NCBI GenBank assembly: GCA_964014485.1 | Contig: CAXHAT010000172.1 | Coordinates: 1 to 16,795, forward strand | Direction: 5' to 3' | From: an uncultured Deferribacteres bacterium | GTDB taxonomy: Bacteria; Zhuqueibacterota; Zhuqueibacteria; Zhuqueibacterales; Geothermadaptataceae | Length of the DNA: 16,795 nt | Part shown: positions 2,530 to 8,184 of the stretch, piece after piece | Layout of the letters: every line of letters starts with the position of its first letter | Numbering within the stretch: position 1 is the first letter of the stretch | The notes under the pieces: generated by a model | What the model saw: the letters and a program-made list of their open reading frames with translations, nothing else | What the model was told of the DNA's origin: nothing | Database searches by the model: none | Translations under genes and position numbers: made by a program

Positions 2530-3453
2530 GTGAGCTCCTACGAAAAGCTACTCCGCAATTTCGAGAATCAGCTCGACCCCGCCCGCCCGGACAAGGGCCG
2601 TTTTCCTGCAAAAATCGTCGGTTACGGCGAAATTTCTTCAGTGCTTCAAATTCCCGGCGCGGAAGAAATCGTTTTCAAGCGCATGCCGCCCTTTGCGTCT
2701 CAAAACGCGATTGAGAATCATGCCCGTCTGATCGAAAAATACTGCGAAAAATTGTTTGAGGCGGTTGGGGTGCAATGTCTCCCGTTTCAGTTTTATCCCA
2801 TAAAAAACGGCGAAGCTGAAAACATCGCGTACATTTCTCAGCCCTACATTGATCCTGCGTTTGTTGGCAACAAATACTTGCGAAATTGCTCGTCGGACGA
2901 ACATCGGGCGATTGCGGACGCACTGGCGGAACTTCTTTTGAAATTGCATCGCTGGAACAAGCGGCGGAACACGGAAACGGCCATAGGGCTTGACGCCCAG
3001 ATTTCCAATTGGGTCTTTCGCAACGGCCCGGAAAAGCCGGAATATCTCGATTATTCAACGCCGTTTCTACGCTTGAAGGGACAAGATCAGCTCGACTCGG
3101 AAATTTTTCTCCGGAGCATGCCGTTTTTTCTGCTTCCGCTCGTGCGTTCTTTCTTCCTGCAAGAAATTTTGGATCGTTATTTTAACATGCGCGCCGTTGC
3201 GGTCGATCTCATCGCTAATCTTTACAAGGAGAAGCTGTCGGCGCTGATTCCGCTGTTCGTCGAGCGTTTTAACGCGCATTTCAGCACGGGCGGCATTGAA
3301 CCAATAACTAAAAATGAGGTAAAGGCTTACTATCGTCAAGATGCGAAAATGTGGGCTTTGTTACTCAATTTCCGGCGCTTCGACCGATTTCTCCATCGGA
3401 ACGTTCTGCGCAAGAAATACAATTTTATTTTGCCTGGAAAAGTTGAGCGTTAA
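2530..3453 (+). CDS. DUF6206-like protein with protein-kinase-like motifs
   Basis: 307-aa ORF. Motifs GYGEISSV, FKRMP, GLDAQISNW, YLDYSTP and terminal FILPGKVER match my recollection of DUF6206. GTG start is uncertain. Confidence 0.7.
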   Translation: MSSYEKLLRNFENQLDPARPDKGRFPAKIVGYGEISSVLQIPGAEEIVFKRMPPFASQNAIENHARLIEKYCEKLFEAVGVQCLPFQFYPIKNGEAENIAYISQPYIDPAFVGNKYLRNCSSDEHRAIADALAELLLKLHRWNKRRNTETAIGLDAQISNWVFRNGPEKPEYLDYSTPFLRLKGQDQLDSEIFLRSMPFFLLPLVRSFFLQEILDRYFNMRAVAVDLIANLYKEKLSALIPLFVERFNAHFSTGGIEPITKNEVKAYYRQDAKMWALLLNFRRFDRFLHRNVLRKKYNFILPGKVER

Positions 3454-3496
3454 AACTTCGATCAAGCAGCATTAACAACAAATATGGAGAATTAAA

Positions 3497-3928
3497 ATGC
3501 CGGACATCGTTCATCAATTCCCAATCAAGGCTCCGCTGGAAGAGGTTTTTAAAGCCGTTTCCACGCCCGCGGGGTTGGACGCATGGTGGACCTTGACATC
3601 GTTGGGAAAAGCGGCGCGCGGGGAAGTTTATGAATTGGGGTTCGGCCCGGAATATGATTGGCGAGCAAGCGTTTCTAAATGCACGCCGTACTCTGAATTC
3701 GAACTCAAAATAACGCATGCCCAGGATGATTGGTTAAATACGGTGATTGGATTTCAACTAAAAGAAAAAAACGGCGCCGCCGAGGTGCTGTTCTATCACA
3801 AAGGCTGGCCGGAAAATAACGATCATTACCGCATCTCATCTTATTGCTGGGCGATGTATTTGCGGCTGATGAAACGTTATGTCGAAAACGGCGAAGTGGT
3901 GGAATACAGTAATCGATTGGATGCGTGA
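3497..3928 (+). CDS. SRPBCC/START-like (AHSA1-type) domain protein
   Basis: IKAPLEEVFKAVSTPAGLDAWW ... FYHKGW ... CWAMYLRLMKRYVENG. RBS GGAGA upstream. Confidence 0.88.
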   Translation: MPDIVHQFPIKAPLEEVFKAVSTPAGLDAWWTLTSLGKAARGEVYELGFGPEYDWRASVSKCTPYSEFELKITHAQDDWLNTVIGFQLKEKNGAAEVLFYHKGWPENNDHYRISSYCWAMYLRLMKRYVENGEVVEYSNRLDA

Positions 3929-3934
3929 GGCGAA

Positions 3935-5293
3935 ATGACCTACGAAGCTTTTACAGACGCCTGGGCAAAATCCTGGGCGCGAAAACTCAATCAAAACGAG
4001 GCTTACAAACAGGCCGCGAGAAATTGGGAATGGCCCGTCGGGATGGTTTTGGAAAAGGACGAGCGGCAGGGTGTATTCGAGGATCGCCGGTTGCTTGTCG
4101 ATCTTTGGCGGGGCGAGTGTCGTGAGGCTCGCACTTGTACGCAGGAAGAGCTTGAAAATGCGGATTATATCATCGGCGGTTCGTTGGAAAATTGGAAAAA
4201 TATCTTTCACGGCGAACTTGATCCGATGCTGGCGCTCATGCGCTGAAAGCTCAAATTGCAAAAAGGCGGCATGTTCGTTTTAGCACGCTACGGAGCCGCT
4301 GCGAAGCAACTTGTGCTCTCAGCAACGCAAACGCCGACGCATTTTCCCGGCGGAAACGGTGCAACTGTAAAGAACGATTTGCAAAACGGACACGCCCAAA
4401 ACGCGTCTGTTAGAACAGGATTTCAAACAACATCGCGCGGCCTGCGGCGCGACAGTTTTCCGATGCGGCTTTTTCAAAAGGCCAAAAAGCACGGCGTTTG
4501 GAACCCGCAAAATATTGATTTCAGCAAAGACGTTGAAGACTGGAAGGGCCTGGACGATCTGGAGCGCGAAGTGATCTTGCATCTCACCTCGCTGTTTCAG
4601 GCCGGTGAAGAATCCGTCACCGAAGATATTCTACCGCTCATCATGACCGTCGCGCGCGAAGGACGGATTGAAGAAGAAATTTACCTGACGTCATTTCTTT
4701 GGGAAGAAGCCAAGCACGTTGAATTCTTCGATCGTTTTTTGCGAGAAGTGGCGCAAGAAAACAGTGACTTGTCCCGCTTTCACGTGCCGAGTTACGGGAC
4801 AATATTTTATGACCGTCTGCCAAACGCCATGAACGCATTATTGACCGATCCTTCCCCGGCCGCACAAGTACGCGCCTCGGTCATTTACAATATGATCGCG
4901 GAAGGAACGCTTGCGGAGACGGGTTACTACAGCTATTTCAAAACGCTCGAAGAGTATGACTTGCTGCCCGGCATTCGCGAAGGCGTCGGTCTCTTGAAAC
5001 GCGATGAATCGCGGCATATTGCGTACGGCATTTACCTGCTCTCCCGCCTTGTTTCCGCCGATCCGTCATTGTGGAAAGTTCTCGAGCAAACGATGGCAGA
5101 GATGCTCGAACCGGCTCTGGAAATTATCAACGAGACATTTGGCAGCTACGAAGTTTTGCCGTTCAACATGCGCCAGGAAGACTATCTTGAGTACGCGATG
5201 AATCAATTTAACAAGCGTATGAACCGACTTGAACGCGCCCGCGACCAGAGTTTGGAAGAAATTGAAAAAGAAGCTGAGCGCGAGTTGGTTTAG
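3935..5293 (+). pseudogene. SCP2 sterol/lipid-binding domain fused in frame to R2lox, interrupted by one in-frame TGA at 4244-4246 (nonsense mutation, sequencing error or readthrough)
   Basis: ORFs 3935-4246 and 4256-5293 share one frame. The junction reads ELDPMLALMR*KLKLQKGGMFVLARYGAAAKQLV, which is the SCP2 motif DPxxAxMxGKLKL with Gly replaced by TGA. No other stop occurs in 453 codons. RBS GAGG precedes ATG 3935. Confidence 0.7.
4271..5293 (+). CDS. R2-like ligand-binding oxidase (R2lox, Mn/Fe ferritin-like) domain; intact portion downstream of the TGA
   Basis: WNPQNIDFSKD, AGEESV, EEAKH, YNMIAEGTLAETGY and DESRH contain all six metal ligands, plus the Val (EESV) and Tyr (IYNM) that form the ether cross-link in the Mycobacterium and Geobacillus R2lox proteins. 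The first in-frame ATG after the stop is at 4271 and has no well-spaced RBS. Confidence 0.9.
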   Translation: MFVLARYGAAAKQLVLSATQTPTHFPGGNGATVKNDLQNGHAQNASVRTGFQTTSRGLRRDSFPMRLFQKAKKHGVWNPQNIDFSKDVEDWKGLDDLEREVILHLTSLFQAGEESVTEDILPLIMTVAREGRIEEEIYLTSFLWEEAKHVEFFDRFLREVAQENSDLSRFHVPSYGTIFYDRLPNAMNALLTDPSPAAQVRASVIYNMIAEGTLAETGYYSYFKTLEEYDLLPGIREGVGLLKRDESRHIAYGIYLLSRLVSADPSLWKVLEQTMAEMLEPALEIINETFGSYEVLPFNMRQEDYLEYAMNQFNKRMNRLERARDQSLEEIEKEAERELV

Positions 5294-5477: not shown

Positions 5478-5951
5478 ATGGCAAAAGTAATTGAAGGTCA
5501 ACTCTCAGCGGTGGGAAAACGGTTCGCTCTCATCGTCGGGCGGTTTAATAGTTTTTTATCTCAGCAAATTGAACAAGGCGCGGTGGATTGCTTGGTGCGT
5601 CACGGCGCAAACTCCGACGATATTCAAATTATTCGCGTGCCCGGCTCCTTTGAAATTCCGATGGCGGCGGCAAAAGTCTTGAAAGAAAAAGACGTCGACG
5701 CGGTCATCGGGCTCGGCGTGCTTGTGCGCGGCGCCACCCCGCATTTTGATTACATCGCCGGGGAGGTGACGAAAGGGCTTGGACAACTGGCGCTGCAACA
5801 TGAAAAACCCGTGACTTACGGCGTCATCACCGCCGACACTTTGGAGCAAGCCGTTGAACGCGCCGGAACAAAAGCCGGGAACAAAGGCTGGGACGCCGCA
5901 TTAGCCGCATTGGAAATGGTGAGTTTGTTCGAAAATCTCGAGGAGAAATAA
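5478..5951 (+). CDS. ribH: 6,7-dimethyl-8-ribityllumazine synthase
   Basis: GRFNSF, VPGSFEIP, RGATPHFDYIA, EQAVERAGTKAGNKGWDAA. Confidence 0.98.
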   Translation: MAKVIEGQLSAVGKRFALIVGRFNSFLSQQIEQGAVDCLVRHGANSDDIQIIRVPGSFEIPMAAAKVLKEKDVDAVIGLGVLVRGATPHFDYIAGEVTKGLGQLALQHEKPVTYGVITADTLEQAVERAGTKAGNKGWDAALAALEMVSLFENLEEK

Positions 5952-5955
5952 CGGC

Positions 5956-8184
5956 ATGTTCTTTTCCTGCCGAAAAAGCCTGCCGCCGTGGCTTCCGCCT
6001 CTGCTTTTTATCTTCCTTTTCGCTGTTTCAGCACACGCCCAATTCAGAAACTGGCGAACTTTTACGAATATGCAATCCATGGTTCGTCTTGTCGCTTCAG
6101 ACGGAAACATTTGGGCGGCGACGACAGGCGGCCTCCTGCAATTCACCCCCGCCGAAAACAATTTTTCTCTCTTCACCAACGCCGAAGGCCTTTCCTCAAA
6201 TGACATTTCCGCGCTAGCTTTGGATAAGCTCGGGCGCGTCTGGGTCGGCCAGCGTGACGGCAACATCAATATTTACGATCCGGCCAACGACGAGTTTGAG
6301 ACGATCATCGAATACCGAAATTTCGTGATCAACGACATTTTGACCGCCGGGGATACCGTGTACATTGCGCTGACAAACGGCGTTGGCGAATACAGAATTG
6401 ACAAGGCGGAGCCAAAGGAGATTTACAAGCAGCTCGGCACGGTTTTCAATAAGGAGATTCCAGCCACAAGGCTCTGGCTCGCAGCCAACACACTGTTCGT
6501 CGGGACGGACGCGGGCGTTGCAAGCGCCGGGCTGGATCAGCCAAATTTGAAAGCGCCGCAAAGCTGGCAAAACACGACGACAGCGCATGGCCTGCCGTCA
6601 CGAACGATCACCGGTTTTGCTGATTTTCAGGGTCAAGTCATCGTCGCCACGAATCGTGGACTGGCCGCCTGGAACGGCGAGGCTTGGACCGCCGCGAACG
6701 GAAATCTGCCGGACAACGATATTCTCGCCCTTTCATCTGGCGATGAAGGCAACGGCGAAGCGCTCGTTGTCGCCACGGTCAGCGGGGTTTTTATTTCTAT
6801 CGATCTACAAAACTGGGAATTGTACGGCGGTTTTTCAGGCTACATGAAGGACGTGACCATCACTGACAATAAGATTTGGGGCGCGTCAAACAATCAAGGC
6901 CTGGCGTCTTATGAAGGCGACTGGCAATGGACGACCTTTGAACCGAACACGCCAAAAACAAACAAGTACAGCGCCCTCGCCGTCGATCAAGACGGCACGC
7001 TCTGGGCCACTTCCGGCGGCGACGGTTTTCTTTCTTATGACGGCGAAACCTGGAACGCCTGGGAAGAGTTCGGCAGCGACGCTTTGGGCGACTACCGCGC
7101 CGTTATTATTGACGATTTCAATCGCCCCTGGATGGGCGTTTGGGGACGCGGCGTGCGCGTGCTTTCGCAAACCGAAAACGGTGCACAGCTCGACACTATC
7201 GACGCGTTTACCGGCGAGCTTGCCACCAGCACCAACAATAACCTGAATTTCCCCGTCGTCACAGCGCTGGAAAAAGACGCCAGCGGCAATATCTGGATTG
7301 CAAATTGGGGCGCAATATCCGGCCAAGTCATCGCCGTTGTAACACCGGACGGCGAATGGGGTTATTTTTCTACAACAGGGGGCGCGGTTAAATCGGACGT
7401 GATCAATCGGCTTTATGTCGATACATTTGGCCGCGTTTGGTACGGCACCGGCAACGTCGGCGTCGGCGTTATCGATCACAAAGGCACGCCGCTCGATCCG
7501 TCGGACGATGAATATTTCCCCAACGCCATTTCGAACAGCGAGCTTTTTTCTCCTGTCATCACCGGCTTGACCGGCAATAGTGACGGCACGATTTTCATCG
7601 GCACCAACGAAGGTTTGAACACCTGGTTTTCAAATCAGGTTTCGCGCCAGTTCGGACTCATCAGCACAGACATTCGCGTCGCGCGTATCGACCCGGCGTT
7701 TAACATTTGGATCGGCGCTAGCGGCGGCGTTACCGTGATCGCGGCGGACGGGTCGATCTTGGAAAATTTCACCACAGGCAACAGCCCGCTCGTGAGTAAC
7801 AGCGTGACGGACTTTGCCTTCGATTCACAGAACGGAACAGCGTATATCGGCACCACAAACGGGCTGTCCGCTGTCTCGACGCCGTTTACCGAAGCAAAAT
7901 CTGATTTTGAGCAGCTCTCCGGGTTTCCAAATCCGTTCATTATTGGCGATGGCGGAGAAAGCTTCACGGTCACCAACCTTGTCTTGAATTCCGGGGTTCA
8001 AATATTTACCGAAGACGGACGGCTGGTGAGAAAACTGGAAGCTGCGGATATTCTTGGCCCGCAAGCTCGTTGGGACGGCAAAGACGCCAACGGCAACTAC
8101 GTCGCCAGCGGCGTTTATCTGTTTGTCGCATTCACCAATCAGGGCCTGAGCGCAACCGGGAAAGTCGCCGTTATTCGAAAATAG
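5956..8184 (+). CDS. PorZ-like secreted beta-propeller protein (Reg_prop repeats) with C-terminal T9SS/FlgD-Ig sorting domain
   Basis: Signal peptide ending AHA-Q. Repeated IWxxTxGGL and GLSSNDISALALD blades. C-terminus FPNPF ... IFTEDGRLVRKL ... WDGKDANGNYVASGVYLF ... GKVAVIRK is typical of PorZ. Confidence 0.8.
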   Translation: MFFSCRKSLPPWLPPLLFIFLFAVSAHAQFRNWRTFTNMQSMVRLVASDGNIWAATTGGLLQFTPAENNFSLFTNAEGLSSNDISALALDKLGRVWVGQRDGNINIYDPANDEFETIIEYRNFVINDILTAGDTVYIALTNGVGEYRIDKAEPKEIYKQLGTVFNKEIPATRLWLAANTLFVGTDAGVASAGLDQPNLKAPQSWQNTTTAHGLPSRTITGFADFQGQVIVATNRGLAAWNGEAWTAANGNLPDNDILALSSGDEGNGEALVVATVSGVFISIDLQNWELYGGFSGYMKDVTITDNKIWGASNNQGLASYEGDWQWTTFEPNTPKTNKYSALAVDQDGTLWATSGGDGFLSYDGETWNAWEEFGSDALGDYRAVIIDDFNRPWMGVWGRGVRVLSQTENGAQLDTIDAFTGELATSTNNNLNFPVVTALEKDASGNIWIANWGAISGQVIAVVTPDGEWGYFSTTGGAVKSDVINRLYVDTFGRVWYGTGNVGVGVIDHKGTPLDPSDDEYFPNAISNSELFSPVITGLTGNSDGTIFIGTNEGLNTWFSNQVSRQFGLISTDIRVARIDPAFNIWIGASGGVTVIAADGSILENFTTGNSPLVSNSVTDFAFDSQNGTAYIGTTNGLSAVSTPFTEAKSDFEQLSGFPNPFIIGDGGESFTVTNLVLNSGVQIFTEDGRLVRKLEAADILGPQARWDGKDANGNYVASGVYLFVAFTNQGLSATGKVAVIRK

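Follow-up and report, generated by a model that had tools for sequence, protein, structure and literature searches.

The window, that is, the whole stretch of DNA analysed here (16,795 nucleotides from an uncultured Deferribacteres bacterium; GCA_964014485.1, contig CAXHAT010000172.1), contains a gene at 3935-5293 whose 453 codons lie in one frame, with a lone internal TGA and a final TAG (Table 1). The initial annotation had proposed that the two open reading frames listed at this position are one, and this is what the translation gives, the TGA being the sole interruption. Read through, the product has 452 amino acids, in which Pfam places an SCP2 domain (PF02036) at residues 23-109 and PF00268 at residues 182-432. 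The SCP2 domain spans the TGA, as had also been proposed: PF02036, with a gathering score of 21.3, reaches 25.7 bits on the read-through protein versus 17.5 on the 103-residue piece that precedes the stop. The AHSA1/SRPBCC-family gene upstream is probably co-transcribed with the fusion gene; it is absent from the neighbour clusters common to at least three loci and is thus no conserved partner of the fusion. It lies on the same strand together with a DUF6206 gene (2530-3928 for the two), which is likewise not conserved with the fusion, and 5478-8184 encodes a lumazine synthase and, behind it, a PorZ-like beta-propeller protein that has an Ig-like domain at its C-terminus and scores below the PorZ cut-off.

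Table 1. Features of the SCP2-R2lox gene and its upstream neighbour (window coordinates).
Feature	Position	Strand	Description	Basis
AHSA1/SRPBCC-family gene	3497..3928	+	upstream of the fusion gene	PF08327, E 2.5e-11
RBS-like GAGG	3927..3930	+	4 nt before the ATG; overlaps the stop of the upstream gene	sequence
SCP2 sterol-carrier-type domain	3935..4348	+	residues 1-138; Thermus TT1886-like subfamily	PF02036; 1wfr/2cx7; model versus 2cx7
In-frame TGA	4244..4246	+	codon 104	GGC (Gly) in contigs from two samples
Inter-domain linker	4349..4414	+	residues ~139-160; flexible, unconserved	low pLDDT; variable length in fusions
R2-like ligand-binding oxidase domain	4415..5293	+		NF006202; alignment to 4hr0/3ee4/7qbp; structure match to 4hr0

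The N-terminal domain belongs to the same SCP2 subfamily as Thermus thermophilus TT1886 (1wfr, 2cx7), with which it shares 40% identity. The sequence matches to 1wfr and 2cx7 have E-values of 3e-28 and 6e-28, and the predicted domain superimposes on 2cx7 with a Z-score of 22.5 and an rmsd of 1.6 Å over 130 residues. TT1886 is a stand-alone protein, whereas the SCP2 domain of the window is joined to an R2lox. We take TT1886 to be the FadR-regulated TTHA0401, which presumably adjoins a zinc dehydrogenase. The available sections of one publication list the operon with TTHA0401 and term the gene hypothetical (PMC5597230). Behind the SCP2 domain a linker is present, as initially described, but the Gly/Asn-rich composition emphasized in that description is not conserved, since the linkers of homologues are mostly Ala/Pro-rich (119 fusions; length 9-45 residues, median 20).

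R2lox proteins are O2-activating enzymes with a dinuclear Mn/Fe (or Fe/Fe) site and a long hydrophobic channel. The claim that the C-terminal part is a complete R2lox without a further stop is borne out for residues ~160-448, which score 434.2 bits against a cut-off of 315 for NF006202 and 280.6 against 194 for NF006200, the NCBIfam assignment being R2-like ligand-binding oxidase. The stand-alone proteins GkR2loxI (4hr0), MtR2lox (Rv0233, 3ee4), SeR2lox (7qbp) and SaR2lox (6qrz/7qbk) share its fold (TM 0.88-0.94 of target among the top ten matches), the six metal ligands and the Tyr/Val pair at 37-42% identity, and differ from the window protein in having no SCP2 domain. By alignment to 4hr0, the dimetal ligands E225, E258, H261, E323, E358 and H361 are all present, and the complete set is found in 125 of 128 fusions; the Geobacillus counterparts are numbered E69, E102, H105, E167, E202 and H205 in the accessible part of PMC10867098. 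The residues from which a Tyr-Val ether link would form are also in place (V228 and Y318, equivalent to V72 and Y162 of the Geobacillus protein), the valine being conserved in 126 and the tyrosine in 125 of the 128 fusions. Column 265, which we take to be the position of the radical tyrosine in class Ia R2 and of a phenylalanine in R2lox, is F265 in the window protein and is occupied by Phe in 114, Cys in 12, Leu in two and Tyr in none of the 128 fusions. Four relatives of the same order (L082-L085) carry Cys at this column. A class I ribonucleotide reductase beta subunit was considered and rejected, given 46.4 bits against a cut-off of 237 for NF007186 and a Phe at 265 in place of the radical tyrosine. 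This R2lox is the sole PF00268 match in the source genome (a 97%-complete assembly), which leaves that assembly without an identified class I ribonucleotide reductase small subunit. In three distant fusions of the 128 (P0128, P0170, P0213), Lys replaces a metal-ligand Glu, E225 or E323 (both in P0170), and the cross-link Tyr is missing; judged by these substitutions, they are possible metal-free lipid-binding pseudo-enzymes.

The internal TGA is covered by two contigs from public runs, X1 (depth 7.4) and X3 (depth 4), which stem from two samples of one study, and both carry G for T4244 and C for A4246, so that the codon reads GGC. These are the sole differences listed, and the eight X1 pieces otherwise match the window exactly. 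The three public runs that hold the region all belong to one marine metagenome study, and RNA datasets are not among the public runs listed as containing it. A glycine at this position, as initially suggested, agrees with the homologues, in which column 104 is Gly in 81, Arg in 36, Ser in two and Cys in none of 119. Furthermore, TGA terminates 1362 of the 3702 open frames of at least 300 codons in the source genome. Because TGA is thus an ordinary stop in this genome and contigs from two samples read GGC, the TGA is most likely an error of this assembly or a minor allele; with coverage being thin, the error is what we infer, and a minor real allele could still exist, since X1 is possibly the window's own source and Logan contigs lose rare variants. 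The TGA version matches contig C61 over just 16 bases, too short to suggest a misjoin, and phage records gave no match.

That the TGA is a real nonsense allele of the sequenced strain, leaving a decaying pseudogene or an R2lox with a stub initiated at the ATG at 4271, appears improbable. Two changed bases within one codon would be unusual for a simple error, the loss of rare variants from Logan contigs would hide such an allele, and the gene occurs in none of the nine same-family genomes searched and in four of 40 relatives overall. In addition, this protein departs from the consensus at seven highly conserved columns against a median of three, but at least seven such departures are also found in 12 of the 119 proteins, so that decay is not indicated, and the conserved-column comparison across these 119 proteins gave no support for relaxed selection on the fusion gene. 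The metal ligands are all intact, the break falls in the middle of a domain, unlike in natural splits, the 103-residue product forms a one-member cluster, and the GGC reading of both covering contigs, in the case of X1 within otherwise identical sequence, speaks against the allele as well, as does the position of the codon ~50 nt from the stretch that the X1 contigs leave uncovered (4295-4462). Recoding of the TGA, as selenocysteine or under genetic code 4 or 25 (in the latter as Gly), is practically out of the question: the genome does have a tRNA-Sec and a hairpin does form downstream, but the hairpin loop UUUAGC lacks the opening G of bacterial SECIS loops, and stop usage, the absence of Cys from column 104 and the GGC contigs all rule against it. 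In itself, the stop codon is biologically of no interest.

The joining of the two domains is a genuine Rosetta-stone fusion, as had been put forward. Among the 120 matches listed, one is the window's own downstream piece and the other 119 all contain both domains, 118 of them covering at least 95% of the query, with the two-domain calls coming from profiles built from that same set. The description of the fusion as hidden from annotation applies to this assembly only, as 46 of these 119 matches are already annotated with PF02036 and PF00268; the fusion is real, common and already in the databases as sequence. Of 230 genome loci, the best 80 were classified; this set is skewed toward fusions because the query itself is fused, and it comprises 35 fused loci, 19 with a separate SCP2 gene nearby and 26 without a local SCP2. 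By phylum, these 80 loci include 24 fused and three split forms in Gemmatimonadota, five fused, 15 split and two without SCP2 in Acidobacteriota, four fused in Balneolota and one fused in Calditrichota. The opposite expectation, that homologues always encode the two domains as separate genes with an independent R2lox start, does not hold, since fusion prevails among the close homologues. Operons in which the two genes are split, with a stop, ribosome-binding site and start of their own, do also occur, and these split forms are natural: the stop lies just past the end of the SCP2 domain, the frames vary, and most of the R2lox genes have their own start and a purine-rich site. Of the 19 separate SCP2 genes, 18 are directly upstream of R2lox and one lies 1.2 kb upstream. 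One fusion of 591 residues (P0336) has ~145 additional residues N-terminal to SCP2, which may be due to a gene call that starts too early or to a third domain.

The association of the two domains extends beyond the fused loci, and it is not obligate. The subfamily is encoded elsewhere (E<=1e-18) in 14 of the 26 genomes whose locus has no SCP2; four more have weak matches only (one of them, G054, unpublished) and eight have none. Within the phylum of the window, R2lox is present in four of 133 genomes, and strong matches to the SCP2 subfamily (E<1e-40) occur in the same four, always in one frame. In 151 genomes of Deinococcota, 27 have the SCP2 subfamily, 22 have R2lox and 15 have both, counts that kinship inflates; seven of the 22 R2lox genomes lack the SCP2 subfamily of the window and 12 of the 27 SCP2 genomes lack R2lox. 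In a FastTree phylogeny of 165 R2lox domains, midpoint-rooted and with many weak nodes, fused and split forms interleave, and two fused proteins (P0198, P0137) fall in distant clades. P0137 has the reverse domain order, the only such case among the 120 listed of 443 matches, and a further protein (P0142) is fused to another SCP2 subfamily, the one present in Rhodococcus R2lox operons (38% over 58 residues, E 6e-10). Given the interleaved tree, the distant positions of P0198 and P0137, the reverse order of the latter and the other SCP2 subfamily of P0142, the pairing seems to have arisen on three or more occasions.

Across phyla, no conserved neighbours of the fused genes were found among 135 neighbour proteins scanned (nearly all from 198 same-strand candidates), and these include no recurring alcohol dehydrogenase (ADH), aldehyde dehydrogenase (ALDH), ferredoxin or other electron-transfer protein, which is why the pathway considered below is borrowed from non-fused operons. 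A 5'-nucleotidase gene lies 3' of the genes in ten loci of one cluster (nine split, one fused), and in one genome (G107, L141:2725-4485) an AidB-like acyl-CoA dehydrogenase is encoded directly 3' of the fusion. Non-fused loci are richer in this respect. A four-gene run of SCP2, zinc ADH, R2lox and ALDH is found at three of them (L136, L137, L077), and plasmid pROB01 of Rhodococcus opacus B4 (L152:4879-12297) encodes in a row an ADH, R2lox, an FAD oxidoreductase, a ferredoxin, an ALDH, SCP2 and a fatty acid-CoA ligase. The same gene set is split into two blocks in R. oxybenzonivorans, and Rhodococcus sp. 008 combines an ADH, a reductase and a ferredoxin with R2lox. No description of the pROB01 operon was found in the literature searched; judged by gene content, its layout would fit the needs of an alkyl-chain hydroxylase that feeds beta-oxidation. 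The source genome of the window has candidate homologues of the ADH, ALDH, ligase and ferredoxin on other contigs; a search of it for the Rhodococcus-type reductase gave no match at E<=1e-10. Apart from R2lox loci, the SCP2 subfamily of the window adjoins ADH genes without R2lox (L124, L125, L092, L093, L145). In L092, L093 and L145 a stand-alone SCP2 gene is directly 5' of an iron-containing ADH, with an aldehyde:ferredoxin oxidoreductase further along in L145, a gene order that suggests SCP2 may serve as a carrier of fatty alcohols or aldehydes.

Structure prediction with AlphaFold2 on an alignment of 128 fusions gave a confident model of the window protein (pLDDT 94.6, pTM 0.90), in which only the linker is low (~61, residues 141-160) and the R2lox part superimposes on 4hr0 with a Z-score of 37.3 and an rmsd of 1.6 Å over 278 residues. 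A structure search returned no solved chain covering both domains (best query TM 0.62). For the reverse-order fusion P0137, an unpaired alignment, each row of which covers one domain only, gave a pTM of 0.87. As R2lox makes up ~2/3 of the chain, values near 0.9 would imply a confident relative placement of the domains in both orders, the two values standing without a negative control and without a comparison of interfaces. The linker-free case is a naturally split pair (L002), modelled as two R2lox copies plus SCP2, which scored 0.53 (runs 0.61, 0.53 and 0.38) against 0.02 for the best control, with at least 86% contact agreement between runs, a partner pLDDT of at least 87 and no interface returned. 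In a benchmark whose counts apply just roughly to this job, the mark was reached by 116 of 157 solved complexes and by two of 215 mismatches, scores at or below 0.60 accounting for only 18 of the 157 and for both mismatches. The prediction thus lends weak support to the formation of an SCP2-R2lox complex in L002. Inter-domain covariation in 166 natural fusions (effective number 97) gave scattered top pairs, the alignment being too shallow. In the G-H gating loop, conservation of F402, Y405, L412 and Y417 (the last a Phe in most homologues) reaches 97-98% at SCP2-linked loci, as against 69-85% where the locus has no SCP2 and 19-38% among distant R2lox; as a docking signature this pattern was set aside, since it is confounded by kinship.

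The physiological substrate and the partner of R2lox are a long-standing question, and the accessible sections of a recent article name the finding of partners as a route to its solution (PMC9314684). There, C16/C18 hydroxy fatty acids are described to co-purify with R2lox, a flexible gating loop is described and a delivery partner is proposed, and haloarchaeal gene clusters are cited in which R2lox is accompanied by ferredoxin and sterol carrier proteins (Kumar 2020, cited in PMC9314684), while the words "fusion" and "fused" are absent from that article. An alkane monooxygenase activity of GkR2loxI was claimed from the loss of alkanes in crude lysates, and the E202A/H205A mutant retained most of the activity; the sections available report alkane loss only (PMC10867098). 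A term search of PMC4118035 turned up neither fusions nor sterol carriers, and no description of an SCP2-R2lox fusion was found in the literature searched, mostly without subscription papers and supplements. Haloarchaeal (Kumar 2020, in the accessible part of PMC9314684) and Rhodococcus clusters resemble the fusion in bringing R2lox and SCP2 together, tied to the oxidation of long-chain hydrocarbons or lipids. They differ from it in that the genes are separate, that the Rhodococcus SCP2 belongs to another subfamily than that of the window, and that the fused loci have no electron chain and dehydrogenases nearby. An annotated SCP2 was present in none of the four haloarchaeal R2lox plasmid loci viewed, so that the published cluster was not reproduced. 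As analogues, the SCP2 domain of UbiJ in the ubiquinone complex (PMC9499169) and the hand-over of aldehyde from AAR to ADO (PMC9314684), as far as the available text of both sources goes, illustrate how an oxygenase can receive a hydrophobic chain from a carrier or partner; they involve other enzymes, substrates and architectures and are not the same system.

In our view the most likely reading, about which we are evenly balanced, is that the SCP2 domain either supplies long alkyl chains to an R2lox acting as an alkyl-chain hydroxylase or relieves it of the products. The tethered SCP2 would extract from membranes or lipid droplets a long alkyl chain of poor solubility, dock on R2lox and exchange the ligand with the R2lox channel, where the chain would be hydroxylated. 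By analogy to the operons of other bacteria, an ADH, an ALDH and an acyl-CoA ligase encoded elsewhere would take the alcohol into beta-oxidation, and electrons would be supplied in trans by a ferredoxin and its reductase; SCP2 may act either in the delivery of the substrate or in the removal of the alcohol product. A wider version of this reading is tentative and, we think, somewhat doubtful. According to it, SCP2 would be the dedicated docking carrier partner of R2lox in a soluble Mn/Fe hydroxylase, widespread among bacteria of soils and sediments, that acts on long alkyl chains (alkanes, ether or wax lipids), a unit recruited several times, with two SCP2 subfamilies and in both domain orders. 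In that case one would expect the SCP2 cavity to retain the natural substrate during purification, and turnover to be seen once carrier, ferredoxin and reductase are supplied.

It is rather unlikely that the SCP2 domain is instead a tethered lipid buffer or membrane anchor that does not dock, and that raises the local substrate concentration or absorbs the fatty-alcohol product for an ADH without channelling. The free variation of the linker in length and sequence, the frequent location of this SCP2 subfamily beside alcohol dehydrogenases rather than R2lox, and the existence of genomes with R2lox only would all suit such a role, and a model of the enzyme complex that contains UbiJ puts the SCP2 domain of UbiJ at the membrane interface (accessible part of PMC9499169). 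The confident two-domain models in both fusion orders and the weak support above controls for the linker-free pair L002 argue against it.

Another alternative, which we consider unlikely, keeps the carrier role and changes the substrate to a biomass lipid, such as an alkyl ether, a wax ester or an isoprenoid chain, which would be hydroxylated or oxidatively dealkylated to aldehyde and alcohol. It would agree with the carriers of the fusion, mostly Gemmatimonadota (24 fused), Acidobacteriota, Balneolota and Calditrichota, which are organic-matter degraders rather than oil specialists, and with the presence of both ADH and ALDH in the operons. Furthermore, R2lox pockets vary among orthologues and the co-purified acids are deemed misleading by the authors in the available sections (PMC9314684). 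The published hints, however, favour alkanes, namely the induction by hexadecane in a haloarchaeon (cited in the same sections of PMC9314684) and the lysate assays (PMC10867098, likewise available in part).

The remaining alternative, that SCP2 carries a lipid-soluble reductant (quinol) which re-reduces the dimetal site, is very improbable: it would explain the lack of a ferredoxin partner and of any recurring electron-transfer neighbour beside the fused genes, and the Ubi complex offers an example of SCP2 domains that bind quinone intermediates (PMC9499169, available sections), but ferredoxin, reductase and SCP2 are found together in the Rhodococcus operons, and SCP2 is therefore no substitute there.

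Through its recurrence, the fusion points to SCP2 as a candidate partner of R2lox. Single-chain constructs are offered by harmless cultured hosts, Halalkalibaculum roseum (WP_165140284.1) and Rhodohalobacter halophilus JZ3C29 (L029), and the R. opacus B4 operon provides a candidate electron chain for reconstitution. In R. opacus B4 (L152), and similarly at L154 and L155, R2lox lies within what looks like a complete operon for alkyl oxidation, and on a Mycobacterium plasmid the "hypothetical protein" encoded directly after R2lox (L156:8137-8547) proves to be an SCP2 that annotation had missed, of the Rhodococcus type at 60% identity.
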